Assembly: GCA_963677595.1 (NCBI GenBank)
Contig: OY782041.1
Location: 3,488,001 to 3,552,000 of the forward strand
Length of the DNA stretch: 64,000 nucleotides
Direction of reading: 5' to 3'
Origin: Spirochaetia bacterium
Lineage (GTDB): Bacteria > Spirochaetota > Spirochaetia > CAKZLE01
The notes beneath the pieces were generated by a model. The model worked only from the letters and a program-made list of their open reading frames with translations. It was not told the origin of the DNA and made no database searches. Position numbers and translations under genes: made by a program. This document shows positions 11,754-61,295 of the stretch, piece after piece; within the stretch, counting starts at the first letter, position 1; every line of letters begins with the position of its first letter.

Positions 11754-12542
11754 TTAGGGGGTATACCGCAGCTTGCGTGAGATCTCCTTGCCGTACCGTA
11801 TCACCTCATTGAGCATGAAGTTGAACTTGTTCCTATTATGGTAGTCCTGGATATGGCCGACGATGCCTATGGCACAGACGACCTGTTTCGTGTAGTCATA
11901 GACCGGGACTGCAAGGCTCCCTATGCCAAGGGAGTACTCTTCGAGATCGGTTGCGTACTTCCGCTCCTTAGCGAGGAAGATCTCCTGCTTATAGGTCTCG
12001 AGGTTGGTAATGGTCTTTTCCGTGTTCGTTGGGACGAACCGCCAGGCACGCCGCAGGAAGTTCTCCTGTTCCTGCTTCGGCATAAATGCGGTGAGGATCT
12101 TCCCGCTGGCAGTCAGGTTGATCGGGATCTTCTCCCTGATCGTCGACATGATCCCCACGGGTTTTGAGGGGAGCACCTGGTCGATGACCATGACCCCGTC
12201 ATCATGGACGACTGCCAGGGTGCAGGCCTGAACCGTCCGCTCCGCTATGGTTCGCATGAACGGTCGTGACTGGGTCGCTAAGTCATTCGCGTTCTGGACG
12301 TGTTGGGAGATCTCGAGGATCCGGGGGCCTGCGATGTATTTCCCGCTCGAGCGATAGTCACCGAGAAGGTAGTTCTTGTCCAGCAGAAGTCTCACGATCC
12401 GGTAGACCGAGGCTATCGGCAGGTCGAGTTCCTGAGCTATCTCCTGTGCGGATAATGATATGCTTGAAGCAGCGATGAGCTCTATGATCTGCAGGGTTCG
12501 CAGTGCTGAAGGAGGGTAGCTGCTGTCCGATGAATTCTGCAT
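11754..12542 (-). CDS. IclR-family transcriptional regulator
   Basis: N-terminal HTH, TASGKILTAF and YATDLEEYSLGIGSLAVPV. Divergent from the GRE operon. Confidence 0.9.
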   Translation of the reverse strand: MQNSSDSSYPPSALRTLQIIELIAASSISLSAQEIAQELDLPIASVYRIVRLLLDKNYLLGDYRSSGKYIAGPRILEISQHVQNANDLATQSRPFMRTIAERTVQACTLAVVHDDGVMVIDQVLPSKPVGIMSTIREKIPINLTASGKILTAFMPKQEQENFLRRAWRFVPTNTEKTITNLETYKQEIFLAKERKYATDLEEYSLGIGSLAVPVYDYTKQVVCAIGIVGHIQDYHNRNKFNFMLNEVIRYGKEISRKLRYTP

Positions 12543-12605
12543 CCTGAAGGTCCTCCATGGAGTGGTTGTTGAGAACTATATCATAATTCTTCATTCTCAG
12601 CAATA

Positions 12606-12759
12606 TATCAAATAAGATTATTAAAGTATCAAATATGATAATACAAATAAATATAGAAAAAAATTCTCGAGAAAAACCACTCATAAATGTATATATTATC
12701 ATATATGATATATATAAAATCATATAGAATTTGACAGCTGGAATTTTCGGTGCTAGTAT
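12606..12759 (+). promoter_or_regulatory. GRE-operon promoter and four TATCAWATATGATA-like operators
   Basis: Boxes start at 12606, 12627, 12697 (perfect palindrome TATCATATATGATA) and 12718. TTGACA (12731-36)-17 nt-TAGTAT (12754-59) with an extended TG. Confidence 0.7.
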
Positions 12760-12781
12760 TCCATCACAAGTGAGGTTTGAA

Positions 12782-13729
12782 ATGGGTCATGAAATTATCT
12801 CCATAGGCGGGCTGCTCGTTGAGATCATCAGGAAGGAACATGGAAGGACGCTGAGTGAGTCAGCAGACTTTGCCGGTCCCTATCCCAGTGGTGATACACC
12901 TATTTTCATCCATGCGGCTGCGAAGCTGGGAAAGGACTGCGGGTTCATCGGTTCCTGCGGGAATGATGCCTTCGGAGACTGTGTCTATGACCGGCTTGCT
13001 GCAAGCGGGGTCGATATGACGCATGTCAAGAAGATCCCCGGCTTGATGACCGGTACCACCTTCGTCATGTATGAGGAAGACGGCACGAGGAAGTTCATGT
13101 ACCACCTGCAGAACTCCGGTTCAGCGGTGGTCACGATCGACGATGTGAGTTCAGAGTACTTCAAGGGCTGTAAGTGGGTGCATTATACCGCATTCAACCT
13201 TGAGATCAGTGACTCGGTCAGGAGTGCTATCTACCGTTCCATGCAGCTGCTGGATGATGACACGATCGTGAGTTTCGACCCTAACGTCCGATTCGAGCTC
13301 TATTCACCGGAACAGCTCAAGAAGATGTGTGAACCGATCCTGAAGCGGGCAAACGTGATCCTGCCGAGCCAGTACGAGTTCTCCAGGATGTACGGCAAGA
13401 CTGATGATGAGGTCTGTACTGAATGGATGGACAAGGGCAAGCTCGTGATCCTCAAGCTTGCAGACCAGGGCTGCCGCATCTACGAGAAGGGAAAGATCGT
13501 GGATGTTGCACCGTTCAGGACTGTTGAGATCGATGCTACCGGGGCAGGAGATATCTTCTGTGCAGCATTTGCCGTTGCCAGGCTGGATGGTAAGTCGATC
13601 CATGATGCAGCGGTCTACGCGAATGCAGCCGGCGCCTTCTCGGTCACCAGGATGGGGCCGATGGAGGGAACCGTCTCCAAGGAAGAGCTTGAGGAGTTCC
13701 TCAGGACCGAACAGGCTGAGATCTTTTAA
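12782..13729 (+). CDS. PfkB-family sugar kinase (1)
   Basis: GNDAFG, SFDPNVR and DATGAGDIF ribokinase-family motifs. Confidence 0.9.
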   Translation: MGHEIISIGGLLVEIIRKEHGRTLSESADFAGPYPSGDTPIFIHAAAKLGKDCGFIGSCGNDAFGDCVYDRLAASGVDMTHVKKIPGLMTGTTFVMYEEDGTRKFMYHLQNSGSAVVTIDDVSSEYFKGCKWVHYTAFNLEISDSVRSAIYRSMQLLDDDTIVSFDPNVRFELYSPEQLKKMCEPILKRANVILPSQYEFSRMYGKTDDEVCTEWMDKGKLVILKLADQGCRIYEKGKIVDVAPFRTVEIDATGAGDIFCAAFAVARLDGKSIHDAAVYANAAGAFSVTRMGPMEGTVSKEELEEFLRTEQAEIF

Positions 13730-13782
13730 TTATTTGGGAATCGATCTTCGTATGGAAGATTTGAATAAACAGGAGGACTGAT

Positions 13783-14784
13783 ATGAAACGAGTATTGATG
13801 ATTATGCTGGTCATGATCTCTCTGACAGGGATGCTGTTCGCAGCAGGAGCTCAGGAAGCTTCAGACAAGGGCGATTATGAGATCGTTGTGGTACCGAAGG
13901 ATGCAACCATCCCATGGTTCGTACGAATGGATGTTGGTGTGAAGGAGTTCGCTGCGGACTCAGGACTCAATGTCTACATGAAGGGACCTTCAGCTACTGA
14001 CGTGACCCAGCAGGCAGAAGTGATCGAGGACCTGATCGCACAGGGTGTTGATGCACTTTGTGTCGTACCTGTAGACCCTTCAGCTCTTGAGCCGGTACTG
14101 AAGAAGGCAATGGACAGGGGTATCGTCGTCGTTACCCATGAGGGATCGACCCAGAAGAACACCATGTACAATGTCGAGGCGTTTGACAACGCAGGATACG
14201 GTGCGTTCATCATGGACAACCTCGCTGCAGCGATGGGAGAGACTGGTGTTTACACTACCATGGTAGGACATGTCACCAACGCTTCCCACAACGAATGGGC
14301 AGATGGTGCCGTGAATCGACAGCTCGAGGCTTACCCGAACATGACACTCCTTGCTGCTGACCCCCGTGTCGAGATCATGGACGATGCAAGTGTCACCTAT
14401 GAGAAGGCAAAAGAGCTCTTCAAGAAGTATGCTGAACTCGAAGGTATCGTCGGGACTTCAGCACACGTCGTTGCGAATGTCCCGAGGGCGATCGAGGAAC
14501 TCGGTCTTGTTGACAAGGCATTCGTCAGTGGTACAGGCCTCCCGTCACAGGCTGGGCAGTACATCAAGAGCGGGTCAGTGAAGTCGATGACCCTCTGGGA
14601 CCCGGCAGATGCAGGCTATGTCATGGCTGCCCTTGCTGAGAAGATCCTCGATGGGGAAGAGATCACCAACGGTGTAGACCTTGGCAAGCCGGGGTATGAG
14701 AACATGATTCTCAAAGGCAACCAGCTGCAGGGTGCAGGGTGGATCACGATCGATGCATCCAACATCGACCAGTTCAACTTCTAA
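13783..14784 (+). CDS. Sugar ABC transporter substrate-binding protein (LsrB/RhaS-like)
   Basis: Signal peptide FAAGAQE, VVPKDATIPWF and LWDPADAG motifs. Confidence 0.88.
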   Translation: MKRVLMIMLVMISLTGMLFAAGAQEASDKGDYEIVVVPKDATIPWFVRMDVGVKEFAADSGLNVYMKGPSATDVTQQAEVIEDLIAQGVDALCVVPVDPSALEPVLKKAMDRGIVVVTHEGSTQKNTMYNVEAFDNAGYGAFIMDNLAAAMGETGVYTTMVGHVTNASHNEWADGAVNRQLEAYPNMTLLAADPRVEIMDDASVTYEKAKELFKKYAELEGIVGTSAHVVANVPRAIEELGLVDKAFVSGTGLPSQAGQYIKSGSVKSMTLWDPADAGYVMAALAEKILDGEEITNGVDLGKPGYENMILKGNQLQGAGWITIDASNIDQFNF

Positions 14785-14797
14785 TCTAGAATAAGAT

Positions 14798-14827
14798 GGG
14801 GCAGAGTTTAGCTCTGCCCCTGTTTTT
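14798..14827 (+). terminator. Intra-operon hairpin after the binding-protein gene
   Basis: GGGGCAGAGT-tta-GCTCTGCCCC followed by TGTTTTT. Confidence 0.6.
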
Positions 14828-14854
14828 CCTACAGAGAAAGCGGGTTTAATAATT

Positions 14855-16351
14855 ATGGATGAATACATACTGCGTGCGAAGGCGATCACCAAGAATTTCG
14901 CCGGAGTGCAGGCACTGCGGGGAGTCTCCCTGGACATCGGGAAGGGTGAGATCCACTGCCTCGCAGGAGAGAATGGAAGCGGGAAGTCGACATTGATCAA
15001 GATCATCTCCGGTGTAGAGGAGATGAACTCCGGTGAATTGGAGATCAAAGGCAAGTCCTATACGAAGATCACACCGATCGAGTCGATCAGGAACGGGATC
15101 CAGGTCATCTACCAGGACCTCTCAGTCTTCCCGAACCTCACGGTAAAAGAGAATCTAGCATATAATACGATCGTAGCTGACCGGAAGAAGATAATAAACT
15201 GGAAAGAGATCGAATCACTGGCCAAAGAGGCTTTGGGCAGGATCAACGTCAATATAGATCTGAATGCGATAGTGGGCGATCTCTCGATCGCTGACAAGCA
15301 GCTAATCGCTATATCGCGGGCGCTGCTGAATAATGCTGAGCTGATCATCATGGATGAGCCGACGACAGCCCTCACGAGGAGGGAGATCAACAACCTTTTC
15401 AAGATCATCAAGCAGCTGCAGGAACGGGGAATATCGATTCTCTTCGTCAGCCACAAGCTTGATGAGGTCTTCGAGATCTCGGACAGGTTCACCATCTTCC
15501 GGAATGGGGAGAATATCAAGAGCGGTGCTACCTCGGAACTCGATGACAAGAAGTTCACCTATTACATGACCGGTAGGGAATTCGAGGAGAAGAGGTTCTC
15601 CTACACCAGGCCGGATGATACGCCGCTTCTCTCGGTGAAGGACCTCACACTCAACCATGGGTTCTCTGATGTCTCGTTCGACCTCTATAAGGGTGAGATC
15701 CTCGGCATCACCGGACTGCTCGGTTCAGGAAGGGCAGAGTTGGCACTTGCCCTCAGCGGCTACTACAAGCCCGACAGCGGTACGTTCCGGCTCAAGGGTG
15801 AGGAGAAGAGATTCTCCAGCATCACCGATGCCATAGCATCGAATATCGGGTATGTGCCTGAAGACCGGCTCACTGAAGGGCTCTTCATGCCGAAGGCAAT
15901 TGGGCGGAACATCATCCTGCCGAAGATCCAGAAGTTCGCGAGTCGGTTCGGATTCCTCAACAAGCAGGCGATCCAGGACGAAATCGACTCCTGGGTATCC
16001 AGGCTGGCGATCAAGACACCGGATGCCGCGAATCCCGTACGGACATTATCAGGGGGGAATCAGCAGCGGGTCGTGCTGGCAAAGTGGCTGGCGATCAATC
16101 CCGAGGTGCTGATCCTCAACGGGCCGACGGTCGGAGTAGACATCGGTTCTAAATATGATATCCACGAAGTCATCAAGGAACTCTCATCCAAGGGGATCGG
16201 CGTGATCGTCATCTCCGATGACCTGCCGGAGATCCTGTCTGTCTGCAGCAGGGTCCTCATCATGAAGGCCGGCAGGGTGACCTCAGAATATGAGACGGCT
16301 GACATGCAGGTCCATGAACTGACGGTTGAGATGACCGAAGATATCGAGTAG
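14855..16351 (+). CDS. Sugar ABC transporter ATP-binding protein (two ABC domains, CUT2)
   Basis: GENGSGKS, MDEPT, LSGGNQQR and PTVGVDIGSK. Confidence 0.92.
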   Translation: MDEYILRAKAITKNFAGVQALRGVSLDIGKGEIHCLAGENGSGKSTLIKIISGVEEMNSGELEIKGKSYTKITPIESIRNGIQVIYQDLSVFPNLTVKENLAYNTIVADRKKIINWKEIESLAKEALGRINVNIDLNAIVGDLSIADKQLIAISRALLNNAELIIMDEPTTALTRREINNLFKIIKQLQERGISILFVSHKLDEVFEISDRFTIFRNGENIKSGATSELDDKKFTYYMTGREFEEKRFSYTRPDDTPLLSVKDLTLNHGFSDVSFDLYKGEILGITGLLGSGRAELALALSGYYKPDSGTFRLKGEEKRFSSITDAIASNIGYVPEDRLTEGLFMPKAIGRNIILPKIQKFASRFGFLNKQAIQDEIDSWVSRLAIKTPDAANPVRTLSGGNQQRVVLAKWLAINPEVLILNGPTVGVDIGSKYDIHEVIKELSSKGIGVIVISDDLPEILSVCSRVLIMKAGRVTSEYETADMQVHELTVEMTEDIE

Positions 16352-16369
16352 ATAGGTGAGGTAAGAACA

Positions 16370-17365
16370 TTGAACAAGCTACTGAAAAAGAATGAATTCT
16401 ATGTCTTTCTGACAATCATATTACTCAGCCTGATCATACAGATGCGAAGCGGCCAGTTCTTCACGCCGAACAACATCGTGGATCTCGTGGTATCGATGAT
16501 CGTACCTGCGATGCTGAGTCTCAGTGCCTTCCTGGTGATCATATCAGGCGGCATTGATGTATCGTTCCCGGCAATTGCATCGTTGAGCATGTATGTGACG
16601 ACAGAGTTGATGGTGAAGTTAAACTTCGCAGGCCCGATCTGGGTGGTGTACCTCATTGCTGCCGGCATCGGGATCCTGCTGGGTTCCTTCAACGGCCTGC
16701 TGGTCGTGCTGCTGAAGCTGCCGACCCTGATCATCACGCTGGGTACCTCGAGCGTATTCATAGGCATCATGCTCGGAGCCCTGAAAGCCCGGGAGATCGC
16801 TGACCTGCCCGTAACCATGCAGTCCTTCGGCAATGCGTCGCTGTTGGTGGCAAGGAACGCCGAGAGCGGCCTTACTTCGAACTTGCCGCCGACGGTCCTG
16901 CTGCTTGGAGGGATCGTGCTGATCCTCTTCCTGCTGCTGAAGTTCACCGTACTCGGGCGCTCGATCTACGCAGTAGGTGGTGATGAGATCGCCGCAAGGC
17001 GGTCCGGTTTCCCGGTAGACAAGACCAAGATCTTCGTCTACATGCTCTCAGGCTGTATCGCCGGGATCGCAGGGATCTCACGTGTCTGCATGCTGCAGAA
17101 CTGCTATCCGACCAACCTGCTCGGAACTGAGTTGAACGCTATCGCAGCGGTAGTCCTCGGTGGTGCGAGCATCACAGCCGGGGGGATCGGCACACTGACC
17201 GGGGCCCTCCTGGGAACTGCGCTGATCACGATCATGGCCAACAGTATGATCCTTCTGGGAATACCGACCTACTGGCAGAGTTTCTCTACCGGTATGCTCA
17301 TCCTGGTAGGAATCGGGGTGTCGGCATATCAGACGATGAGAGCCCAGACTCGAATCAAAGATTAA
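16370..17365 (+). CDS. Sugar ABC transporter permease
   Basis: SGGIDVSF, YAVGG and AAVVLGG RbsC-type motifs. TTG start. Confidence 0.9.
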   Translation: MNKLLKKNEFYVFLTIILLSLIIQMRSGQFFTPNNIVDLVVSMIVPAMLSLSAFLVIISGGIDVSFPAIASLSMYVTTELMVKLNFAGPIWVVYLIAAGIGILLGSFNGLLVVLLKLPTLIITLGTSSVFIGIMLGALKAREIADLPVTMQSFGNASLLVARNAESGLTSNLPPTVLLLGGIVLILFLLLKFTVLGRSIYAVGGDEIAARRSGFPVDKTKIFVYMLSGCIAGIAGISRVCMLQNCYPTNLLGTELNAIAAVVLGGASITAGGIGTLTGALLGTALITIMANSMILLGIPTYWQSFSTGMLILVGIGVSAYQTMRAQTRIKD

Positions 17366-17380
17366 TGACAGGAGAATCAG

Positions 17381-18400
17381 GTGAATACTAAGCATAATAA
17401 CGGCTTCTTAACAACGTTAGACAGATTGTATAAGAAGGACACGAACTACGGAAGATTACTGATCATCCTGATCATATCGGTGGTGTTCCTCGGGATACTG
17501 AAACCCTCGAAGTTCCTGACCTTCTACTCCTTCCAGTCGATGGCATACCAGTTCCCGCAGTTCGGGCTGCTTTCCCTCGGTGTCATGATTGCTATGATCA
17601 GCGGCGGTATCGACCTCTCTGTGGTCGGGATTGCCAACCTCTCTGCAGTCATGGCGGCTAAGACCCTGCTCGTCCTCATCCAGGAGGATTCCACGGGTAT
17701 TTCCCTCGGGTTTGGGATCATCATCGTCATCCTCGTTGGACTGGTGGTCGGCATGATCGCCGGCCTGCTCAACGGGCTGTTGATCTCGAGGATCGGTATA
17801 CCTCCTATCCTGGCGACGTTGGCGACCATGCAGCTCTTCAGGGGTGTCACAGTCGTCCTCACGGAAGGCAGGGCGGTGAGCCATCTGCCTATCCAGTTCT
17901 CGAATATGGGGAATGCGACGATCTTCGGGATCATACCTGTACCGACCCTCATATTCATCCTTGCAGCCCTCGGGGTCAGCATCCTGCTCTCGAAGACCGT
18001 CTACGGTGAGAGGCTCTTCATGCTGGGGACGAACCCTGTTGCCGCCCTCTACAGTGGGCTGAAGATCAAGAACCTCTTGGTCAGGGCTTATATGCTCTCC
18101 GGAGTGATGGCAGCCCTCGCAGGGATGGTCATGATGGCCAGGATGAACTCGGCACGAGCCGACTACGGCACGCAGTATACCCTGCAGAGTATCCTGGTGG
18201 TCGTTCTCGGGGGAGTCGATCCGAACGGGGGTACCGGCCGCGTCGGGACGGTAGTGCTGGCGATCATCGTGCTGCAGATGCTCTCCACCGGGCTGAACAT
18301 GTTCCCCTCGATAAGTAACTTCTACCGGTCGTTCATCTGGGGGATGGTCCTGCTGGTCATCCTCGGCTGGAACGCTCTCCACAAGCGGAAGAACTCGTAG
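17381..18400 (+). CDS. Sugar ABC transporter permease
   Basis: SGGIDLSV, PPILATL and VVLGG RbsC-type motifs. GTG start after AGGAG. Confidence 0.9.
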   Translation: MNTKHNNGFLTTLDRLYKKDTNYGRLLIILIISVVFLGILKPSKFLTFYSFQSMAYQFPQFGLLSLGVMIAMISGGIDLSVVGIANLSAVMAAKTLLVLIQEDSTGISLGFGIIIVILVGLVVGMIAGLLNGLLISRIGIPPILATLATMQLFRGVTVVLTEGRAVSHLPIQFSNMGNATIFGIIPVPTLIFILAALGVSILLSKTVYGERLFMLGTNPVAALYSGLKIKNLLVRAYMLSGVMAALAGMVMMARMNSARADYGTQYTLQSILVVVLGGVDPNGGTGRVGTVVLAIIVLQMLSTGLNMFPSISNFYRSFIWGMVLLVILGWNALHKRKNS

Positions 18401-18448
18401 GGTGGGCAGTTGCGTAAGTGTAAAAATCATTTCATAGAGGAGTCAAAT

Positions 18449-19399
18449 ATGAGATTCGATATAGTCTCGATCGGTGCACTTCTGGTTGAGATCATGAGAA
18501 AGGACAAGAACCAGGATTTTAATGTACCGGCTGAGTTCATGGGGCCGTTTCCCAGCGGGGATACCCCGATATTCATCAATGCCGCCTCGAAACTGGGCTT
18601 CAAGTGCGGGTTCATCGGGACCGTCGGCAATGACGGGTTTGGGCAGTGCGTGATCGAGCGTCTCCAAGAGAATCATGTGGACACCGAGTGCATCAGGGTG
18701 ATCGACAGCCTCTCCACGGCAGTGACCTTCATTGCCTATTTTACCGGCGGGAACAGGAAGTTCCTCTACCACCTGCACAATGCAGCTGCCGGAGATCTGA
18801 GGCCATCTGATGTGAAGAAAGAGTATGTCAGTGATACCAAATGGGTTCATCTTACCGGATTCGGCCTCTCAGGGAGCGTGAGTTCCCGTGAAGCTGCCCT
18901 GAAGATCCTCGACTATATTCCCGATTCGGTACAGGTGAGTTTCGATCCCAATATCAGGACGGAAGCCCTGAGCCTTGAAGAACTCAGGGAGATCTCGATG
19001 CCGGTGATCGAGCGCTGCAGCGTCTTCCTTCCCAGCGAAGGCGAAGCAAAGGAGATCATGGGGATGGACAGTGATGAGGAAGCCTGCAGGTACCTTGCAT
19101 CCCAGGGAAAGATCGTTGCCCAAAAACTTGGGCCTGCGGGGAGCAGGATCTATGCAGGGGACCAGGTGATCGCCGTACCGTCATTCCCTGCAGTTGAAGT
19201 GGATCCGACCGGTGCAGGCGACACCTTCAGTGCCGCGTTCATCGGGGCGCTGATCGAAGGTAAGGATCTCTATGATGCGGGGCTATTCGCGAACACTGCG
19301 GCAATGCTCTCCATCGGCAAGAAGGGCCCTATGGAAGGAGCTCCTTCCAGGGCTGAGGTGGATGACTTCCTCAAAGAGAAAACTGAAGCAGTAATCTAA
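18449..19399 (+). CDS. PfkB-family sugar kinase (2), paralog of 12782
   Basis: GPFPSGDTPIFI, GNDGFG, SFDPNIR and DPTGAGDTF. GAGGAG SD. Confidence 0.9.
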   Translation: MRFDIVSIGALLVEIMRKDKNQDFNVPAEFMGPFPSGDTPIFINAASKLGFKCGFIGTVGNDGFGQCVIERLQENHVDTECIRVIDSLSTAVTFIAYFTGGNRKFLYHLHNAAAGDLRPSDVKKEYVSDTKWVHLTGFGLSGSVSSREAALKILDYIPDSVQVSFDPNIRTEALSLEELREISMPVIERCSVFLPSEGEAKEIMGMDSDEEACRYLASQGKIVAQKLGPAGSRIYAGDQVIAVPSFPAVEVDPTGAGDTFSAAFIGALIEGKDLYDAGLFANTAAMLSIGKKGPMEGAPSRAEVDDFLKEKTEAVI

Positions 19400-19436
19400 C
19401 CGTCTGCGTACGGATTTGAATGAATTGGAGTTGAAC

Positions 19437-20285
19437 ATGGTAATAGACATACATGCCCATCCGGGCTTCATCAAGGAGATCAGTGAGGACTCAGAGCGGG
19501 TAGCGTTCAGGAGGGAGAGCTTCTTCCTCTACAAGCAGCACGTATGGCCGATAGAGCTGGTCATCAAGCAGCTCGATGCGGCTGGGATCGACAAGTCGGT
19601 CCTGCTGCCGGAAGATGTCACGACACGGTGGGGTGACACGATCGTCTCGAACGAGGAGGTCGCGAAGCTCGTTGAGCTCGTCCCGGACCGGTTCATCGGG
19701 TTCGCGAGCGTCGACCCGAACCGGGAGGATGCCGTCGAGGTGCTCGAGCAGGCCTTCACCGACTACAAGCTCTCAGGGTTGAAGCTCAACCCGTCGAACC
19801 AGCGGTTCTACCCGCAGGATGAGAAGCTCGCACCGATCTATGAACTGTGCGTGAAGCACAACAAGCCGATCCTCTTCCATGCAGGGATGACCTGGCTCAA
19901 GGAGTCGCCGGCAAAATACTCACAGCCGCTGAACTTCGAGGACGTGGCGATCGGGTACCCGGAACTGCGGATCAGCCTCGGCCACTTCGGGTGGCCGTGG
20001 GTGATGGACACGGCGATGCTGCTGCTGAAGTACCCGAACGTCTATGCGGACACAGCACTGCTCTACTTCGACTCCCCGAAGCAGTTCTTCGATACGACCT
20101 TCAACAACCAGCTCGGTCCCTACTGGATCGACCGGATGCTCGCTGACAAGGTCATGTTCGGGTCGAACTACCCGAGGATCGAGCAGAAGCGGATGAAGGA
20201 TGCCCTCGACGTGCTGAAGCTGCGGGATGTGAACCGGAAGAAGGTACTCGGCGGGAACGCAATGAGATTCCTCAGTATAGAATAG
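19437..20285 (+). CDS. Amidohydrolase_2-family metal-dependent hydrolase/decarboxylase
   Basis: IDIHAH, GLKLNP, ILFHAG, GHFGWP, NVYADT and MFGSNYP. Confidence 0.85.
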   Translation: MVIDIHAHPGFIKEISEDSERVAFRRESFFLYKQHVWPIELVIKQLDAAGIDKSVLLPEDVTTRWGDTIVSNEEVAKLVELVPDRFIGFASVDPNREDAVEVLEQAFTDYKLSGLKLNPSNQRFYPQDEKLAPIYELCVKHNKPILFHAGMTWLKESPAKYSQPLNFEDVAIGYPELRISLGHFGWPWVMDTAMLLLKYPNVYADTALLYFDSPKQFFDTTFNNQLGPYWIDRMLADKVMFGSNYPRIEQKRMKDALDVLKLRDVNRKKVLGGNAMRFLSIE

Positions 20286-20294
20286 GAGAGAAAG

Positions 20295-20723
20295 ATGACA
20301 GAACATCATGAGATATATGTCCTGACGGACGATGACTACGACGTGAAGTATATCGGGGAGCAGGTCAAGGCGACGGTAGCGAACTCGAAGATCCAGAACG
20401 GGATCGTGACGATCGTCACCTCCCATACGAGTACGGGGATCAGCGTAACCGAGCCGCTCGACTGCATCCTGAGCGACCTGGAAGTGCTGATGCGCAAGCT
20501 CGTGAATGACGATGAGGAGTACTCGCATGCCCACTTCCTGCCGACCTACGGGAGGACCTCGGCCAATGCGCCTGGGCACCTGCGGTCGATCCTGACCGGG
20601 AACAGCTGCATCTTCCCGATCCAGGGGAAGAAGATGATGATGGGAGCAGCCCAGGAGATCCTGCTGATGGAGTTCGACGGACCCCAGAATCGCAAGATCT
20701 ATATCGATATCATAGGAGACTAG
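20295..20723 (+). CDS. yjbQ: YjbQ (UPF0047) family protein
   Basis: SHTSTGISVTE, NAPGHLRSILTG and EFDGPQNR match the YjbQ HTTA..NE / NA..HL / EFDGPR motifs. Confidence 0.85.
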   Translation: MTEHHEIYVLTDDDYDVKYIGEQVKATVANSKIQNGIVTIVTSHTSTGISVTEPLDCILSDLEVLMRKLVNDDEEYSHAHFLPTYGRTSANAPGHLRSILTGNSCIFPIQGKKMMMGAAQEILLMEFDGPQNRKIYIDIIGD

Positions 20724-20731
20724 CTAGGTAT

Positions 20732-23143
20732 ATGAGTAGAGTAACCCCCTCGAGCTCACACGATTACACAGGATACCTCAAGGACTTGAAGGCTCTCGGA
20801 CCGACCGACCGGATTACGACTGCAAGAGAGAGGATCTTTACCGAGAAGCGGTACCTGACGATCGAGCAGGCCCTGATCATCACCGAGACATACAAGCAGC
20901 ATGAAGGTGAGTCAAGGATCCTTCAGCGGGCGTATGCGCTCGCTGAGGCGCTGGAACGTCTCGAGATCAGGATCGACCCGGAAGAGTTGATCGTCGGGAA
21001 CCGGACTGCGGGTATCCGCTACGGGGTGGTCTCTCCTGAGGCCGGGATCGAATGGGTTGACCAGGAGCTTGAGACCTTCCCGACGCGGGAGCAGGACCAG
21101 TTCAATGTCCGGGAAGAGGACAAGGAAATCTTCCGGAACGAGATCCTTCCCTACTGGAAGGGCAAGGGGTTGCGGGACGAGATCGAGCGTGCCGACGGGA
21201 AGCAGATCAAGCTTCTTGAGAAGGTCGCGAAGATCAACCAGAAAGACCATGCCCAGGGACACATCTGCCCGGATGTGGAGAAGTGGCTTGAAGTCGGTCC
21301 TTCAGGCTTGAAGGAAGCGTGCCGGCAGAAACTGCTTACGGAGACAGATCGGGCAAAGAAGGATTTCTATATCGCCCTGATCCTGGTCCTTGACGGGACG
21401 ATAACCTTCATCGAACGCTACGAGAAGTTAGCCTTGGACATGGCTGGGAAGTCTGAATACAGCGACGTCGCTGAAGACCTCAAGCTGGTCGCGGCGAACT
21501 GCCGCAGGCTCAAAGACACTCCCCCGGAGACGTACCATGAAGCCCTGCAGTCGGTCTGGTTCCTCTTCGTCGTCATGCACATGGAATCCAACGCGAACTC
21601 TTTCTCCCCTGGACGTATGGACCAGTACCTTTACCCTTATTTCGAGAAGGAGTTCTCAGGCGGTACGCTCTCCCTGGAGCGTGCCCTTGAACTCACGGAT
21701 GCGTTCTACATCAAGCTGAACCATATCGTCTATATGCGGAACAAGTATAGTGCCCAGTACTTCGCTGGGTTCACGACCGGGTTCAACGTAGCCCTCGGGG
21801 GCCTGCTGCCAGACGGCAGTGACGGTACGAACCTGCTATCGTTCATCTTCCTCAAGGCCCAGGAGCATGTGCAGCTTGCACAGCCGAACCTCTCGGTACG
21901 GCTCCATGACGGGGCACCGGATGACTTTGTGAACGAGAGCAGCAGGATCATCAGTCTCGGCACCGGCATGCCGCAGGTGTTCAATGATGAGAGCATCATC
22001 CCGGCCTTGCAGCGGCAGGGTGTGGCTGATGAGCATGCGAAGGATTATGCGATTGTAGGCTGTGTCGAGCTCACTACGCCGGGCAACAACCTCGGTTGGA
22101 GCGATGCAGCCATGTTCAACATCCTCAAGGTACTCGAACTGACGATGAACAACGGGTACTGCCTGCTCACCGGCGACCTGCTGGGGCTGCAGACGGGCTA
22201 CCTCTATGACTATGGGACCTATGCTGAGTTGGAGGAGGCGTTCCGGAAACAGCTGGACTACTTCATCGCCAGGATGCATGAGAGCTCGATGGTCGTTGAT
22301 CGGATGCATGCAGAGGTGCTGCCTTCCCCATTCCTCTCCTCCGTGATCTCTGACTGTATCGAGAAGGGGATGGATGTAACTGCAGGGGGTGCCCACTACA
22401 ACTACAGCGGTATCCAGGTCATACAGGTCGCGAACATCGCAGACTGCCTCGCAGCGCTGAAGGTCGGGGTCTATGAAGACAGGCTCGTGGATGCGAACGA
22501 ACTCCTTAAGGCCTTGAAGGATAACTATGAGCATGATGAACCGCTTCGGCAGATGCTCATCAACAAGATCAGGAAGTTCGGCAATGACCACAGCGAGATC
22601 GATGAGCTTGCAAACCACTGGATCACCTATATCGAGCAGAAGATCGGTGCCCTGAAGAATGTCAGGGGCGGTAAGTACCAGGTTGGACTCTATACCGTCT
22701 CTGCCCATGTCCCCATGGGATTGAACGTCGGGGCTACACCCGACGGGAGGAAGGCCCGGGAACCCCTGGCAGACGGCGGTATGTCCCCTGTCTACGGGAG
22801 GGACCTGCTCGGCCCGACAGCCGTACTGAAATCGGTCTCGAGGGTGAACTCGCTCCTCGGGAGCAATGGTACGCTGCTGAACATGAAGTTCACCCCTGAT
22901 TTCTTCAAGACAGATGAGGATATAGCGAAGTTCTCGAGTTTCCTGCGGACCTTCGTGAAGCTCCATATCAACCATATCCAGTTCAATGTCATCACCGAGA
23001 AGGATCTGCTCAATGCGCAGAAACACCCGGAGAAATACCAGAACCTGCTCGTGAGGGTAGCGGGGTATACTGCCTACTTCACAGAACTTGCGAAAGACTT
23101 GCAGAATGAGATCATCCAGCGGACGACCCACGGGGAGCTATGA
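20732..23143 (+). CDS. Glycyl radical enzyme, PflD-like eliminase/isomerase clade (not pyruvate formate-lyase)
   Basis: 803 aa. Single-Cys loop IVGCVE, glycyl loop LVRVAGY, and ESNANSFSPGRMDQY, YFAGF, YTVSAHVP and NGTLLN segments shared with E. coli PflD as recalled. Confidence 0.9.
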   Translation: MSRVTPSSSHDYTGYLKDLKALGPTDRITTARERIFTEKRYLTIEQALIITETYKQHEGESRILQRAYALAEALERLEIRIDPEELIVGNRTAGIRYGVVSPEAGIEWVDQELETFPTREQDQFNVREEDKEIFRNEILPYWKGKGLRDEIERADGKQIKLLEKVAKINQKDHAQGHICPDVEKWLEVGPSGLKEACRQKLLTETDRAKKDFYIALILVLDGTITFIERYEKLALDMAGKSEYSDVAEDLKLVAANCRRLKDTPPETYHEALQSVWFLFVVMHMESNANSFSPGRMDQYLYPYFEKEFSGGTLSLERALELTDAFYIKLNHIVYMRNKYSAQYFAGFTTGFNVALGGLLPDGSDGTNLLSFIFLKAQEHVQLAQPNLSVRLHDGAPDDFVNESSRIISLGTGMPQVFNDESIIPALQRQGVADEHAKDYAIVGCVELTTPGNNLGWSDAAMFNILKVLELTMNNGYCLLTGDLLGLQTGYLYDYGTYAELEEAFRKQLDYFIARMHESSMVVDRMHAEVLPSPFLSSVISDCIEKGMDVTAGGAHYNYSGIQVIQVANIADCLAALKVGVYEDRLVDANELLKALKDNYEHDEPLRQMLINKIRKFGNDHSEIDELANHWITYIEQKIGALKNVRGGKYQVGLYTVSAHVPMGLNVGATPDGRKAREPLADGGMSPVYGRDLLGPTAVLKSVSRVNSLLGSNGTLLNMKFTPDFFKTDEDIAKFSSFLRTFVKLHINHIQFNVITEKDLLNAQKHPEKYQNLLVRVAGYTAYFTELAKDLQNEIIQRTTHGEL

Positions 23144-24045
23144 TGCTGGGAACTATCTTCGATATCAAGCGTTTCTCCGTCCATGACGGCCCGGGACTGC
23201 GGACTACCGTCTTCCTCAAGGGCTGCCCGCTCACCTGTCTCTGGTGCCAGAATCCGGAAGGTCTCTCCCGTGAGATCGCCCTCTGGTACTTCCCGAACAA
23301 GTGTATCAGCTGCGGCAGGTGCATAGAGGCCTGCCCGAATGATGCCCTGCGAATGGAAGACGGGAAGATCATCATCGACCGGGACCTCTGCAGGAAGTGC
23401 GGCAGTTGCACGAAGGCCTGCCCGACGAATGCCCTGGCCTTTGACGGGAGGGTCGTTAGCGTGGATGAGGTCATGGAGGAAGTTCTGAAAGACCGGCAGT
23501 TCTATGAGACCTCAGGAGGCGGTATCACCCTCTCCGGGGGGGATGCCCTCGGCCAGCACCGGTTCGCCGGGGAGATCATGAAGCGGTGCAAGGAAGAGGG
23601 AATCCATACGGCCATGGAGAGCTGCATGTTCGCCACTGAGGAACAGATAGCTAGCGTCCTGCCGTATCTCGACTACTTGATCATGGATGTCAAGCACCAT
23701 GACAGCAGCCTGCACAGCAGGTATACCGGTGTCTCCAATGAGCGTATCCTCAAGAACCTCAAGGACATCGCAGCGGTATTCCCGATAGAGCAGATGCTTG
23801 TACGTATCCCCCTCATACCCGGTTATACCGCTGATCCAGCAAATGTGAAAGCCATCGCGGCGAAGGTTTTCGCCATCGATCCTGGCCTGCAGATCGAGCT
23901 GATCAACTACAATCCGCTTGCACCGAACAAATACCGGATCCTGCAGAAGGACTATGTGCCGGGAACTGATCTGAAGCCTCTTTCGGAGCAGGAGATCAGT
24001 GATCTGTATGCTATAATCGAGGAAGAGAGAAGGAGTACCCAATGA
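23140..24045 (+). CDS. GRE-activating radical-SAM enzyme with a 2x[4Fe-4S] ferredoxin insert
   Basis: HDGPGLRTTVFLKGCPLTCLWCQNPE, CISCGRCIEAC and CRKCGSCTKAC. ATGA overlap with the GRE gene. Confidence 0.93.
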   Translation: MMLGTIFDIKRFSVHDGPGLRTTVFLKGCPLTCLWCQNPEGLSREIALWYFPNKCISCGRCIEACPNDALRMEDGKIIIDRDLCRKCGSCTKACPTNALAFDGRVVSVDEVMEEVLKDRQFYETSGGGITLSGGDALGQHRFAGEIMKRCKEEGIHTAMESCMFATEEQIASVLPYLDYLIMDVKHHDSSLHSRYTGVSNERILKNLKDIAAVFPIEQMLVRIPLIPGYTADPANVKAIAAKVFAIDPGLQIELINYNPLAPNKYRILQKDYVPGTDLKPLSEQEISDLYAIIEEERRSTQ

Positions 24046-24722
24046 AGCGTTCAGAGATAAATGATATCATGAAAGAGGCCACGGAATTCATACACGAACA
24101 CGGGTTCGTGCTCCCTCCCTTTGGGTACTGGACCCCGGCCGACTGGGCATCCAAGGGGACAGAATGCATCGAGATCGTGGATAATATGCTCGGCTGGGAT
24201 ATCACGGACTTCGGTTTCGGGAACTACGAGAAGATCGGGCTGCTCATGTTCACCCTGCGAAACGGCAACTTCAACAAAGAGGCCTATCCCAAGGCCTATG
24301 CAGAGAAGCTCCTCATCTCAAAGGAGGGGCAGGTGACCCCCTTCCACTTCCACTGGTCGAAGATGGAGGATATCATCAACCGCGGCGGCGGCAACCTGGT
24401 CATCGAGTGCTGGAACAGCGACCCGGACGGAAAGAGGCTCGATACTGACGTCCAGCTCCATGTGGACGGGACGGTCATCACGGGTAAGGCCGGGATGAGA
24501 CTGACGCTGCACCCGGGAGAGAGCATCACGCTGCTTCCCTACCAGTACCATGCGTTCTGGGGTGAGAAGAGATCAGGGACGGTGCTCATCGGGGAGGTCT
24601 CCTCGGTGAACGACGACCGGGTCGATAACCGGTTCCTTGAGAAGACAGGACGGTTCCCCGAGATCACCGAGGATGAGGCCCCGCTCCACTACCTGTGTAA
24701 CGAGTACCCGAAACTGGGTTAA
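24042..24722 (+). CDS. D-lyxose/D-mannose-family cupin sugar isomerase
   Basis: MKRSEIN, LGWDITDFG, YAEK, PFHFHWSKMEDIINRGGG and GEVSSVNDD. Confidence 0.9.
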   Translation: MKRSEINDIMKEATEFIHEHGFVLPPFGYWTPADWASKGTECIEIVDNMLGWDITDFGFGNYEKIGLLMFTLRNGNFNKEAYPKAYAEKLLISKEGQVTPFHFHWSKMEDIINRGGGNLVIECWNSDPDGKRLDTDVQLHVDGTVITGKAGMRLTLHPGESITLLPYQYHAFWGEKRSGTVLIGEVSSVNDDRVDNRFLEKTGRFPEITEDEAPLHYLCNEYPKLG

Positions 24723-25672: not shown

Positions 25673-26821
25673 GTGAGTACGGAGCTTATCCGGTTCTCCG
25701 AACCGGAGACCGCCGGGAACCCGCAGGTAAGCCTGCAGAGGATCACCTCGATCGAGTCGGGCGGTGAGTACTATCGGGAGGCCTGCAGCCTCCTGCAGGG
25801 GATCGTACCGACGGATGGGATCTTCCTGACTGCATCAGGCTCACAGGCCCTCGAGTTCGCCGTGATGCTCGCCCAGGTGGGGCAGGGTGATGAGGTGGTC
25901 ATGCCCTCCTATACCTACTACTCAACGGCGAACGCCTTCCTGGCTGCCGGGGCATCCGTGGTCTTCGTCGATATAGACCCCGATACCATGACGATGGATG
26001 CATCACTGGTGGATGCTGCCGTCACGGCGGCAACGAAGGCCGTCGTCGCGGTCCATTACGGCGGCGCCTCCCCCGATATGGATAGGCTCCTCGAGATCTG
26101 CGACCGGTATGGCCTCATACTCATCGAGGATGCTGCCCAGAGCATCGGGGCATCATACAAGGGACGGCCGCTGGGTACGATCGGTGCGCTCGGGATCCTG
26201 AGCTTCCATGCCACGAAGAATGTCACCTCAGGCGGGGAGGGCGGAGCCCTCCTGGTGAATGACTCCTCCCTCATCGACCAGGCTCGTATGATCTCCCAGC
26301 ACGGGACGGACCGCTTGAAATTCCTCGCAGGGGAGAGTGATCACTATACCTGGCATACCGTCGGCTCCTCCTACATGCTCGGGGAGCTCTCCTGCGCATG
26401 GCTTGCCGCACAGCTTGGGGAATTCAGTACCATACAGTCCAGGAGGAGAAAACTCTGGGAGTTGTACCGGGAACTGCTTAAGCCCCTGGTTGAGAAGGGG
26501 GTCCTATCCATCCAGAGGGTACCGGCCTGGAACGACCATAACAGCCACCTCTACTATATCCTCTGCCGAGATGCCGGTGAACGCTCTCGACTGCAGCGAT
26601 ACCTCTCCGAGCTCGGCATACAGACGGCGACCCACTACATCCCGCTTCATACCACCCCCTACGGGAAGGATCATACCCGGTTCTCCGGGTCAGACCGCCA
26701 TACCAGCGATGCGGCAAGCCGCCTGCTTCGGCTCCCGCTCCATACGAACCTGACCGATGAGCAGGTAGGTGCCGTATGCCATGGTATCCATGAGTTCTAT
26801 GGGGACAGCAGTGATGACTGA
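25673..26821 (+). CDS. wecE: dTDP-4-amino-4,6-dideoxyhexose transaminase (WecE/RffA-like, DegT/DnrJ family)
   Basis: MPSYTYYSTANAF, IEDAAQ, PLP-Lys SFHATKNVTSGGEGG, YTW..VGSSY, HYIPLH and LLRLPL. Confidence 0.85.
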   Translation: MSTELIRFSEPETAGNPQVSLQRITSIESGGEYYREACSLLQGIVPTDGIFLTASGSQALEFAVMLAQVGQGDEVVMPSYTYYSTANAFLAAGASVVFVDIDPDTMTMDASLVDAAVTAATKAVVAVHYGGASPDMDRLLEICDRYGLILIEDAAQSIGASYKGRPLGTIGALGILSFHATKNVTSGGEGGALLVNDSSLIDQARMISQHGTDRLKFLAGESDHYTWHTVGSSYMLGELSCAWLAAQLGEFSTIQSRRRKLWELYRELLKPLVEKGVLSIQRVPAWNDHNSHLYYILCRDAGERSRLQRYLSELGIQTATHYIPLHTTPYGKDHTRFSGSDRHTSDAASRLLRLPLHTNLTDEQVGAVCHGIHEFYGDSSDD

Positions 26822-27548
26822 ATCTTCTGTCAGCGTCGTCATCCCCGTCTTTAATGCGGAAGCTTATATCGAAGAACTCTATCGGGAGTTGAAGACGGTA
26901 CTCTCCGAACATTTTAACCGGTTTGAGATCATCTTCGTCGATGATGCCAGCAGTGACAGGAGCGGAGATGCAGTCCATGCGATCGCGGAAGCTGATCCCT
27001 CCTGCACGGCAGTCTCCCTCTCTGAGAACGTCGGCCAGCAGAAGGCTACCTTCTGCGGGCTGCAGTATACATCAGGGGAGTATGTCGTCACCATCGATGA
27101 TGACGGGCAGTACGCCCCGGATGATATCATCAGGCTCCATGCTGCGATCTTAGAGGGGAAGTACGACTGTGTCTACGGGATCCCCTTGATCAGGAGCAGG
27201 AGGCTCATCAGGAGGCTGGGAACTTGGCTTACCGACCGTTCACTCTCACGGCTTACCGGGAAGGAGCCTGCCGTGAAGGTCAGCAGCTTCAGGATCATGA
27301 GCCGCGAGCTCGCCAGCCAGGTCCTTGCCTGTCCCTCCTGTGCGATCTACCTCTCTGTGGAGATCCTGAAGCTGACGAAGCGGATCGGGAACCTCCCGAT
27401 CGAACTCCGGCATGAGGAACGCGCGACGAGGTATACCCTTCGACGGCTCCTGAAGGCTTTCACGGCGGTCCACACCCATGGAGTCGGGGCTGCAGATGCA
27501 GGTGAACGCTTCATGATCGGGAAACTGACAGGAAGGGGATCAAGATGA
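26814..27548 (+). CDS. GT2 polyprenyl-phosphate glycosyltransferase (ArnC/GtrB-like, no TM tail)
   Basis: SVVIPVFN, FVDDASSD, NVGQQKA, TIDDDGQY and SSFRIM. Confidence 0.85.
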   Translation: MTESSVSVVIPVFNAEAYIEELYRELKTVLSEHFNRFEIIFVDDASSDRSGDAVHAIAEADPSCTAVSLSENVGQQKATFCGLQYTSGEYVVTIDDDGQYAPDDIIRLHAAILEGKYDCVYGIPLIRSRRLIRRLGTWLTDRSLSRLTGKEPAVKVSSFRIMSRELASQVLACPSCAIYLSVEILKLTKRIGNLPIELRHEERATRYTLRRLLKAFTAVHTHGVGAADAGERFMIGKLTGRGSR

Positions 27549-28771
27549 GGGTGCATGTGCTTGGCGGAGGCTATGCCCAGCTGAACATGATCAGGAGGCT
27601 TAAGGAACTTGGCCATACCGTGATCGTCTCTGACTACCTACCCGATGCCCCGGGGAAAGCCGATGCCCATTACAGCAGCATGGTGAGCACCTTCGATGCA
27701 GAAGGCATCCAGAGGATAACCTCCTCCTACCATGCTGACGGGATCATCACGCTCGGGACTGACCAGCCGGTACTCACGGCTGCGATTGTCGCAGGCCAGC
27801 TCGGGCTGCCTTCCTGTGTCACGGTCGACCAGGCCATGGCAGTCACCCATAAGCGGGTCATGAAGCAGGCCCTTGAGGCGTCCGGTGTTCCGGTCGTACC
27901 CTGGGCATGCGTACCCGAAGGCTTTGAGGATGAAGTACTCAAGGAGCTTATTCCTCCCTATGTCATGAAGCCCTTAGACAGCCAGGGACAGCGCGGTATC
28001 TTCAAGCTCGATACCATAGAGGAGATCAGAGCCCATATACTTCAGACCCTCTCCTTCTCGCGCGACTCGGAAGTGCTCGTAGAGCAGTACTATCCCCATG
28101 AGGAACTCACCGTGAGCGGCTGGGTCCATGGGGGACGATTGACAGTCCTCACGATCACCGATCGGATCACCCGTGACACCCCTCCGTCGATCGGGGTCTG
28201 CTTCGCCCACCGATTTTCCACGAAGCATATCGCGGAGGAAGCAGAGATCTGCGTGCTGTCGCATCGGGTCGTCGAGGCGGTTGGGATCAGCGAAGGGCCG
28301 GTCTACATCCAGCTGCTCAAGGGGGAGCGGGGATACCTTGTCAATGAGGTCGCCGCCCGGATCGGCGGGGCTTTCGAGGAGTATGTGATCCCGGCAGTGA
28401 CCGGCCTCCCGGTCGATGACCTCCTCATCAATGCCGTGCTCGGGGAATTCCCCGACCCTGCGGATACCTATAACCCGAACGGGGACCATGCATGGGTACT
28501 CTTCTTCTTCTCCCGGCCGGGGACAGTCGGGAAGACCGGGACGGTTGGAGAATTGATGGAGATCGAGGGGGTACTCACCGCTAGATATCTTGTCGGTGCA
28601 GGAGATACGCTCACCCCCGTGACCAATGCCACGCAGCGGGCTGGTTATGTGGTATGTGCTGCCCCTCCGGAGAGGATCGATGCGCTGAAGGAACAGCTCA
28701 TCTCGCTGTTCACTGTACAGGATGAGAACGGCTGTGATATGATACTGCCCATCGAGGAAGCCGGCAGATGA
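27545..28771 (+). CDS. ATP-grasp carboxylate-amine ligase
   Basis: VLGGGYAQ, HKRVMK, VMKPLDSQGQRG, VEQYY and NEVAARIGG. Confidence 0.85.
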   Translation: MRVHVLGGGYAQLNMIRRLKELGHTVIVSDYLPDAPGKADAHYSSMVSTFDAEGIQRITSSYHADGIITLGTDQPVLTAAIVAGQLGLPSCVTVDQAMAVTHKRVMKQALEASGVPVVPWACVPEGFEDEVLKELIPPYVMKPLDSQGQRGIFKLDTIEEIRAHILQTLSFSRDSEVLVEQYYPHEELTVSGWVHGGRLTVLTITDRITRDTPPSIGVCFAHRFSTKHIAEEAEICVLSHRVVEAVGISEGPVYIQLLKGERGYLVNEVAARIGGAFEEYVIPAVTGLPVDDLLINAVLGEFPDPADTYNPNGDHAWVLFFFSRPGTVGKTGTVGELMEIEGVLTARYLVGAGDTLTPVTNATQRAGYVVCAAPPERIDALKEQLISLFTVQDENGCDMILPIEEAGR

Positions 28772-45125: not shown

Positions 45126-45153
45126 TCGTTTGAGAAGAACAGTTGGAGCAGGA

Positions 45154-46149: not shown

Positions 46150-46185
46150 CCTTTGAACGAAAAACTGTGTTTTTTTACCGTGCTA

Positions 46186-46212
46186 CGTAAGCGTTTACGG
46201 TAAACGCTTACG
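46186..46212. promoter_or_regulatory. Double LacI operator forming a 27-bp inverted repeat
   Basis: CGTAAGCGTTTAC-G-GTAAACGCTTACG, with the same core as 45108-45125. Confidence 0.8.
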
Positions 46213-46237
46213 CAATAGAGGGAATTATGACAAGGAG

Positions 46238-48623: not shown

Positions 48624-48625
48624 TG

Positions 48626-48666
48626 CAGTGCTGCCATACCGGCCCACAAACCGGTATGGTACACTG
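48626..48666 (+). other. Intercistronic hairpin after the binding-protein gene
   Basis: CCATACCGG-cccacaaa-CCGGTATGG with outer CAGTG/CACTG arms and no U tract. Confidence 0.5.
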
Positions 48667-48700
48667 AAGTCAACAGAATATGAGATCGAATGGAGTGTGT

Positions 48701-50418: not shown

Positions 50419-50421
50419 GCC

Positions 50422-57009: not shown

Positions 57010-57309
57010 TCTACCACCCTCGTATCGCATATCCGGTTTCTATCTTATAAAAGCACATGAAACTAAAAGAAGTTCATATGAAAGATCTCTGCTCAGAATC
57101 ATCCCTGACCGTCTATACCATTTATCAGTATAATACAATACAAGTTAGGGTAATGCAAGTTTTATTATTCAATTATGCCTAGAAGTGAAAGATTATAAAA
57201 GAAAATAAAAACAAATAAAATAATATTTGACAGATAAGAAATGCTATGCAACAATAAAACAACCTAATGAACAAATAAACGTTACTGACAGGGAAACAGG
57301 AGAGGATGA

Positions 57310-60159: not shown

Positions 60160-60210
60160 TTTTGAGCTAATAACAATGTATATTGTTAGAAATATAAAAT
60201 GGAGGAAATC

Positions 60211-61230: not shown

Positions 61231-61295
61231 AACGAAGCGTAACCCCGCGGGGGCAGGATTCCTGTCCCCGCATCCTTGAGTGAAAAGAGGCAAGT

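Follow-up and report, generated by a model that had tools for sequence, protein, structure and literature searches.

A PflD-like glycyl radical enzyme with an amidohydrolase-YjbQ pair in a conserved spirochaete operon lacking phosphotransferase genes

Glycyl radical enzyme (GRE) isomerases were described only recently and number three (PMC13450708). The closest described systems to the one presented here are PflD of Escherichia coli, a 1,5-anhydromannitol-6-phosphate C-O lyase (PDB 8ID0, 8YJO), and YbiW, a 1,5-anhydroglucitol-6-phosphate C-O lyase (PDB 8ID7) belonging to the branch YbiW-YbiY-FsaA, according to PMC13450708 and PMC12441222. We analyzed 64,000 nucleotides from a Spirochaetia bacterium (the window; contig OY782041.1, positions 3,488,001 to 3,552,000), in which an annotation made from the letters alone (the sequence-only reading) had picked out an operon around a PflD-like GRE as a candidate radical sugar pathway. 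Its summary of the known chemistry, ring opening by PflD and YbiW to 1-deoxyfructose 6-phosphate followed by cleavage by Fsa aldolases, agrees with the two sources. Its placement of E. coli pflD among phosphotransferase system (PTS), fsaB and gldA genes is borne out by the neighbors gldA, fsaB, ptsA and frwCBD (frwCB-pflDC-frwD with ptsA-fsaB-gldA). Judged by its sequence, the window operon would work like the PflD branch of anhydroglycolysis, yet falls outside that branch by both sequence and gene context. Our preferred interpretation, held tentatively and at somewhat less than even likelihood, is that the GRE of this conserved, PTS-free operon opens a phosphorylated anhydro-hexitol other than that of PflD, that an amidohydrolase-YjbQ pair rearranges the product, and that a terminal isomerase salvages mannose.

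The GRE and its operon compared with PflD and YbiW

The operon spans twelve genes within positions 11754-24722, with an IclR gene on the minus strand and eleven co-oriented genes on the plus strand (Table 1). Gaps between genes are short throughout the unit, and the GRE, activase and isomerase genes overlap by four bases at each junction. All twelve genes lie where the sequence-only reading had put them, as one unit divergent from IclR. An independent lineage, with proteins 47-64% identical to those of the window, keeps the gene order, which is therefore beyond chance. An artefact of a horizontal island was considered and rejected: GC content is 0.52-0.57 against about 0.58-0.59 in the flanks, and gene order is conserved.

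The GRE carries its cysteine loop, GCVE, at residues 443-446 (Cys444, Glu446) and its radical motif, RVAG, at 775-778 (Gly778). The claim of a single-cysteine loop in place of the Cys-Cys motif of pyruvate formate-lyase (PFL) thus holds, and PFL itself was rejected as an identity because Cys-Cys is missing. With a radical glycine motif, a single cysteine within CxE, a barrel fold and a dedicated activase, the protein has the features of CxE-type (eliminase/isomerase) PFL-like GREs. Membership in CutC, HypD, glycerol dehydratase (GD) or HpfG was rejected, as all of these models score far below cut-off. The predicted structure (pLDDT 87) matches GD, PflD and propanediol dehydratase at a TM score of about 0.9; since the three score alike, fold cannot discriminate function here.

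The closest solved sequence is PflD (E 2e-195), at 44% identity, and the PflD equivalog model PRK09983 is missed (775.6 against a cut-off of 1109 bits). The window GRE belongs to a clade of 55-68% relatives whose sister, in a tree of 39 sequences built with FastTree, is PflD. The two proteins share the CxE loop, the QGH histidine (His177), the aspartate after the cysteine loop (Asp458), the FAGF strand, the YTVSAHVP and RVAG motifs, and an adjoining activase gene. They differ where TDKGQGH of PflD reads KDHAQGH in the window GRE, ESNASS reads ESNANS, FPTGY reads FTTGF and GLHDIA reads GWSDAA. By alignment, the changed positions (173, 289, 348-349, 456-457 and 565) fall in active-site strands or loops, where some may touch the ligand; the strands bearing 289 and 348-349 line the active site across the GRE family. 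The remaining residues of interest are His331 and Thr348-Thr349. Position 289, an asparagine, aligns with Ser265 of PflD and His282 of YbiW. YbiW, from which the same class of chemistry is expected, is 34.5% identical, and its ESNGH histidine and GKWGYRCTG loop are both missing from the window GRE. On sequence, we regard the window GRE as PflD-like and not PflD; clustering with PflD around an identical active site, one outcome that would have counted against a new pathway, is not what we found.

Gene context separates the two branches as well. PflD is served by PTS uptake, FsaB and GldA, whereas the window unit has an ATP-binding cassette (ABC) importer and PfkB kinases, contains no PTS, Fsa or GldA gene (as the sequence-only reading had noted), and adds the amidohydrolase, YjbQ and isomerase genes.

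Distribution of the GRE subtype and of its neighbors

Seven of the 120 best GRE homologues, query included, read ESNAN and FAGFTTG, and we term these subtype A. The other 113, subtype B, read ESNAS (one ESNSS) and, wherever the pattern matched, FAGFP[IV]G. The distinction is fixed in a 65-sequence alignment, with Asn289 and Thr348/Thr349 in 8/8 subtype A proteins against Ser289 and Pro/Ile in 57/57 of subtype B; position 331 is His in 7/8 and Gln in 56/57, respectively. The tree holds eight A proteins, 13 of the 113 B proteins, the GREs of selected loci and E. coli PflD and YbiW; in it, the A proteins form a single clade (local support 1.0) that lies inside B. Subtype B is uncharacterized; its members are 55-63% identical to the window GRE and share with it the DHAQGH and GWSDA motifs and ABC uptake. 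They differ in Ser289, Pro-Ile and, at about half of the loci examined, a ROK-like protein; A has lost the neighbors typical of B and gained the PfkB-amidohydrolase-YjbQ trio and a different importer. The proposal of uptake by ABC importer plus kinase is supported, but such uptake is general in B, the parent clade, and does not single out this locus.

We examined the neighborhoods of 79 B loci from GTDB genomes, with flanks of up to 10 kb and some short contigs. Matches to the amidohydrolase and to YjbQ were missing from all 79, and PfkB gave one weak match. A 600-residue ROK-like protein with no Pfam match occurs in 40 of the 79, a count affected by an ORF picker that overlooks some GC-rich genes, and beside the window genome's own B paralogue. 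B loci typically also have their own ABC importer, distinct from that of the window, as well as a ROK kinase and a GRE of YbiW type. Lyxose-type isomerase genes 49-55% identical to that of the window lie in or beside Clostridia B + YbiW operons at L025, L035, L037 and L041 (after the ROK-like gene) and at L039.

The A motif was absent from the 79 loci that the GTDB scan with the GRE returned, which is no proof of its absence there, since the scan missed the A operon of genome G1053. A metagenome scan for the motif returned one locus, L089. Nine of its genes follow the order of the window, from the binding protein through ATPase, two permeases, PfkB, amidohydrolase and YjbQ to GRE and activase, and an AGE-family gene closes the operon. 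G1053 holds a near-identical copy (L109), and we count the two as one lineage. For the six other A proteins the link is indirect: five have the same "longest contig" figure as an orthologue of the binding protein or amidohydrolase, against 0/112 for B (figures from top-120 lists, with the window genome's B paralogue left out). Subtype A thus co-varies with this transporter and amidohydrolase and B does not; the accessory genes are, as suspected, conserved neighbors of this GRE subtype.

A is an added paralogue, since a B + YbiW operon is present as well in both readable A genomes, that of the window and G1053. In the window genome this second GRE locus (L087/L088, C1 about 1109482-1130700) encodes a B GRE, an activase, a ROK-like protein of 603 residues that matched no NCBIfam model, an ABC importer, a ROK kinase, a YbiW-type GRE, a GMC oxidoreductase, DeoR, a second activase and a Gfo/Idh/MocA protein; no Fsa gene was found in it. 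The YbiW-type gene adjoining the B paralogue is 56% identical to E. coli YbiW. A fourth GRE with its own activase lies at C1:4057040-4060366 and is 32% identical to the window GRE.

An fsa gene elsewhere in the genome could have completed the known pathway. No short Fsa was found in the window genome, which has three long transaldolase-family PF00923 genes and gave the E. coli FsaA query only a 79-residue match; G1053, which may be incomplete, gave no Fsa match. A second sugar or sugar-acid operon in the window (56239-63096) encodes DeoR, PfkB, a class II aldolase, a Zn dehydrogenase and a TRAP transporter; the aldolase among these is a candidate enzyme for the cleavage step that the GRE operon lacks.

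The amidohydrolase-YjbQ pair, kinases, terminal genes and importer

We fetched 25 loci around relatives of the amidohydrolase, 23 from genome and metagenome searches and two from 103 plasmid records; many are kin, and three matches contain a stop. YjbQ directly follows the amidohydrolase in all 25, with a PfkB-family kinase near. Eighteen are fructoselysine-type loci, with an FrlD-like protein at 35% identity or more and often FrlB and FrlC, three are operons with a TRAP transporter and a DHDPS-type aldolase, and the remaining four are GRE operons representing two lineages. Amidohydrolase relatives were matched in 4/101, 5/401, 4/400, 3/251 and 11/256 genomes searched and in 0/5 in one further search. 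Close homologues are abundant (1,639 at E <= 1e-40, several named as gut-type Clostridia), which suggests that the module is common although subtype A is rare.

The second GRE lineage (G687, locus L098, and G973, L104:8172-15896) has the order cupin-PfkB-amidohydrolase-YjbQ-LacI-GRE-activase-Fsa. Its GRE is 30% identical to that of the window, falls on the YbiW side and has a GCSE loop, a YbiW-type ESNGH motif and a KVAG radical motif; at only 30-35% identity to the window GRE, PflD and YbiW, it represents an uncharacterized GRE class. Because the kinase-amidohydrolase-YjbQ trio is found in the window/L089 lineage and again in G687/G973, it has been coupled to GREs twice, and its company with a GRE and Fsa in the latter places it in a ring-opening-plus-aldolase route. 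A tree of the amidohydrolases, with weak deep support, sets the GRE-linked members outside the clade linked to frl genes. Those frl operons, such as that on Enterococcus faecium DO plasmid 2, hold the same adjoining pair beside a PfkB kinase, with FrlD/FrlB/FrlC and amino-acid transporters where the window has GRE, activase and a monosaccharide ABC importer; the pair is uncharacterized there too. At L100:114-10432 (G712), the pair accompanies a hydantoinase/oxoprolinase-like gene, a peptide ABC importer and an FrlD-like kinase, with no FrlB in view, and a possible role of that locus is catabolism of a fructosyl-oxoproline-type compound.

The amidohydrolase has the barrel fold of its family (PF04909) and a degenerate form of the ACMSD/LigW metal site, the ligands of which are HxH, a beta-5 His and a beta-8 Asp. 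The window protein has Asn251 at the beta-8 position, which is an Asp in hydrolases as well as in the decarboxylases ACMSD and LigW, and Asp occurs there in 0/120 aligned sequences, so decarboxylation is unlikely. His15, the second His of HxH, is kept in 21/120 and the beta-5 residue His155 in 22/120; the window protein itself retains four His residues. Its top fold matches are uncharacterized (3IRS, Z 28.4, rmsd 2.7, 261 aligned; 3CJP, Z 25.8), with ACMSD and LigW behind them at Z about 22-24 and 15-22% identity. No characterized orthologue was found. Galactarolactone isomerase, a non-hydrolytic enzyme with Asn at beta-8, may be a parallel. YjbQ keeps the conserved set of its family, His44, Glu53, His78, Asn91 and His95.

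Both kinases have the tagatose kinase model NF049991 as top NCBIfam match, at 239.5 (kinase 1) and 224.2 bits, below the cut-off of 420, and they are 45% identical to each other. Kinase 2 is the conserved member of the trio (58% identical to its counterpart in L089 and 51% to that in G687). L089 has one kinase against two in the window, and the second occurs only with the isomerase, making kinase 1 likely a ketose kinase that partners the isomerase, with fructose, or else tagatose or xylulose, as its predicted substrate. The isomerase scores 283.7 bits over its full length against NF051472 (cut-off 350) and far above the cut-off of PF07385; a blastn search of it against E. coli genomes gave no match. 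The AGE-family protein that ends the L089 operon is closest to PDB 8H1K (E 1e-104), which we take to be the Runella mannose 2-epimerase. These closest solved relatives, 8H1K and the D-lyxose/D-mannose isomerase 3KMH, differ from the genes described here in that the latter end a GRE operon. According to PMC8718577, the lyxose/mannose isomerase and AGE families both interconvert free mannose. The terminal gene thus appears to swap between two folds acting on the same free sugar, which would support mannose salvage; the simplest reading is of two routes, isomerase plus ketose kinase, or epimerase plus housekeeping glucokinase.

Orthologues of the binding protein at 60-82% identity share "longest contig" figures with subtype A GREs. 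Relatives at 44-48% lie in deoM-deoK-deoC (deoxyribose) operons (2/174 plasmid records read), and others, 55-62% identical, have a xylose-isomerase-like gene and a mutarotase as neighbors. In 301 genomes of G1050's class, searched with the binding protein for the context of Microbacterium-type orthologues and with at most seven candidates scored per genome, no match reached E <= 1e-100. At L122:4661-15436 and L123 (G195, G241), binding proteins of this family at 61-63% accompany a xylose-isomerase-like gene and a rhamnose mutarotase and adjoin a B GRE with an RmlD-like gene before it; in L122, no gene for the 600-residue ROK-like protein follows the activase. The window genome encodes a 43% binding-protein paralogue (L111, C1:766000-785900) with its own importer, dihydroxyacetone-kinase-like genes, an FGGY kinase and a BtpA-like gene.

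Table 1. Genes and sequence elements of the GRE operon (positions in the window)
Feature	Position	Strand	Basis and remarks
IclR-family regulator	11754..12542	-	PF01614 + PF09339; divergent from operon
Promoter-like site TTGACA-17-TAGTAT, extended -10 TG	12731..12759	+	AT-rich gap shared with divergent IclR gene
PfkB kinase 1	12782..13729	+	PF00294
Solute-binding protein, monosaccharide class, RhaS/LsrB-like (Peripla_BP_4)	13783..14784	+	PF13407; closest PDB 5BRA, E 3e-77
Hairpin then T run, between binding-protein and ATPase genes	14798..14820	+	putative function
Two-domain sugar ABC ATPase	14855..16351	+	family-model matches
ABC permease 1	16370..17365	+	PF02653
ABC permease 2	17381..18400	+	PF02653
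PfkB kinase 2	18449..19399	+	closest PDB 3IQ0, E 1e-55; probable start at first ATG
Amidohydro_2 barrel, degenerate metal site	19437..20285	+	PF04909; probable start at first ATG
YjbQ/UPF0047 with subfamily insertion	20295..20723	+	TIGR00149 93.5 bits, cut-off 67.75
GRE, subtype A	20732..23143	+	TIGR01774 784 bits, cut-off 678; PF02901 + PF01228
Radical-SAM activase with ferredoxin-like insertion	23140..24045	+	TIGR02494 324 bits, cut-off 174
Lyx_isomer: D-lyxose/D-mannose isomerase-like cupin	24042..24722	+	PF07385, E 5e-100; closest PDB 3KMH, E 2e-68

The promoter-like site has 10/12 consensus matches; 14 such sites were found against 8.4 +/- 2.8 in shuffles, so its credibility comes from position alone. 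The TTG at 12731 that the ORF finder took as a start is the -35 box of this site, and ATG 12782 is the most likely start of the first kinase. IclR is not kept in the L089 lineage, where a DeoR gene lies downstream instead. Elsewhere in the window, positions 45130-52098 hold a dextran/cycloisomaltooligosaccharide-type utilization locus (LacI, GH15, ABC importer, GH66), and positions 25673-32802 hold genes unrelated to the operon (DegT aminotransferase, glycosyltransferase-like, ATP-grasp, ABC genes and a PMT_2 membrane glycosyltransferase).

A proposed pathway and its alternatives

Under the anhydro-hexitol interpretation, a small neutral sugar-like compound would enter through the ABC importer, whose gene class is plain and whose ligand is presumed, and PfkB kinase 2 would phosphorylate it at O6. 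The activated GRE would then abstract hydrogen from C2, Glu446 would deprotonate the C2 hydroxyl and the bond between C1 and the ring would break; the catalytic residues are present, and by family the product would be a 1-deoxy-2-ketose 6-phosphate, as for PflD and YbiW. The amidohydrolase and YjbQ may act as a non-hydrolytic epimerase/isomerase module that gives the fructo configuration to a 1-deoxyketose 6-phosphate lacking it. We propose this role from the sole feature common to the contexts of the pair: each involves a 1-deoxy-ketose 6-phosphate, be it an Amadori 6-phosphate or a GRE product. D-mannose, co-imported or released, would be converted to fructose 6-phosphate by the cupin isomerase and kinase 1, or salvaged in the L089 lineage by the mannose 2-epimerase-like enzyme. 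Aldol cleavage would fall to an enzyme encoded elsewhere or to one other than Fsa.

Several points weigh against this interpretation. As far as sequence tells, an enzyme with Asn in place of Ser and Thr-Thr in place of Pro-Ile could still take the same substrate, and the function of clade B is itself putative. A mannose-handling gene fits a manno substrate, and for that substrate the product of a PflD-type reaction would need no epimerase, a role assigned to the pair from gene context. Lyxose-type isomerase genes also occur in 5/79 B loci and so are no marker of a new substrate; the mixed contexts of the binding protein name no single ligand. The operon holds no aldolase, and gene order was read as DNA for two A operons (window and L089/L109), with the other A proteins linked through "longest contig" matches.

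Two alternatives are unlikely to about the same degree. The substrate might instead be an amino- or imino-sugar of the 1-amino-1-deoxy-mannitol or deoxymannojirimycin type, with the GRE cutting C-N after O6 phosphorylation and the pair unmasking or deaminating, on either side of this radical step, a sugar phosphate that bears the amine. The predominance of fructoselysine-type loci (18/25) and the polar residues that subtype A changes in active-site strands are consistent with this idea, but the GRE-linked amidohydrolases fall outside the fructoselysine-linked clade (with the weak deep support noted above), the operon has neither FrlB nor an amino-acid permease, its kinases are tagatose-kinase-like and not FrlD-like, and its transporter is of a neutral monosaccharide class. 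C-N cleavage by CxE GREs is itself established for CutC and HplG (PMC13450708).

A rewired known reaction is no more probable: the GRE would open 1,5-anhydromannitol 6-phosphate like PflD, with PfkB replacing ROK-like kinases, the pair disposing of or repairing 1-deoxyfructose 6-phosphate or side products, and the isomerase handling mannose that enters by the same importer. The nesting of A inside B and the mannose-acting families of both terminal enzymes would fit, and with no short Fsa found in the window genome another route for 1-deoxyfructose 6-phosphate is needed. However, both readable A genomes already carry the B + YbiW operon, A has its own fixed residues and a different transporter, and the trio coexists with Fsa in G687/G973 and so is not simply an Fsa substitute.

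It is improbable that the GRE acts as a dehydratase or furanoid ring opener, turning an alditol phosphate or a 2,5-/1,4-anhydro-alditol phosphate into a 2-deoxy-aldose phosphate. PfkB kinases usually take furanose-type sugars, the 44-48% binding-protein relatives lie in deoxyribose operons, and in the fold comparison PflD scores no better than glycerol and propanediol dehydratases; against this, DeoC is missing from the operon and from L089, sequence and tree place the GRE with PflD, and the GD-type His at position 289 is missing. Least probable is the speculation of the sequence-only reading that ring opening of a carboxylated or C-substituted anhydro-sugar yields a beta-keto acid for the amidohydrolase to decarboxylate, an option poorly supported in that the decarboxylases (ACMSD, LigW and related enzymes) among the fold neighbors, the four retained His and the three TRAP/DHDPS-type acid-sugar loci are set against the Asn at beta-8, two unconserved His ligands, uncharacterized best fold matches, an importer that is not a TRAP or acid transporter, and a pair found mostly without a GRE, in fructoselysine-type operons.

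The literature we searched, which leaves most subscription journals outside its coverage, held no description of GRE subtype A or of the amidohydrolase-YjbQ pair, and no native reaction for YjbQ/UPF0047 was assigned in the paper titles or abstract openings searched. A bolder possibility, which we consider doubtful, is that subtype A is a neofunctionalized GRE whose new reaction is either C-N cleavage in an amino- or imino-sugar phosphate or ring opening of a new anhydro-sugar, and the pair a new two-subunit enzyme on 1-deoxy-ketose 6-phosphates; this would link radical anhydro-sugar glycolysis to Amadori catabolism and give the universal YjbQ family its native function. As an offshoot with fixed residues beside its parent paralogue, subtype A offers a test pair for substrate change in GRE isomerases. 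YjbQ/UPF0047 is widespread, and here it occurs with a fixed partner, a kinase, a screenable binding protein and two GRE lineages, a setting in which its substrate should be findable.

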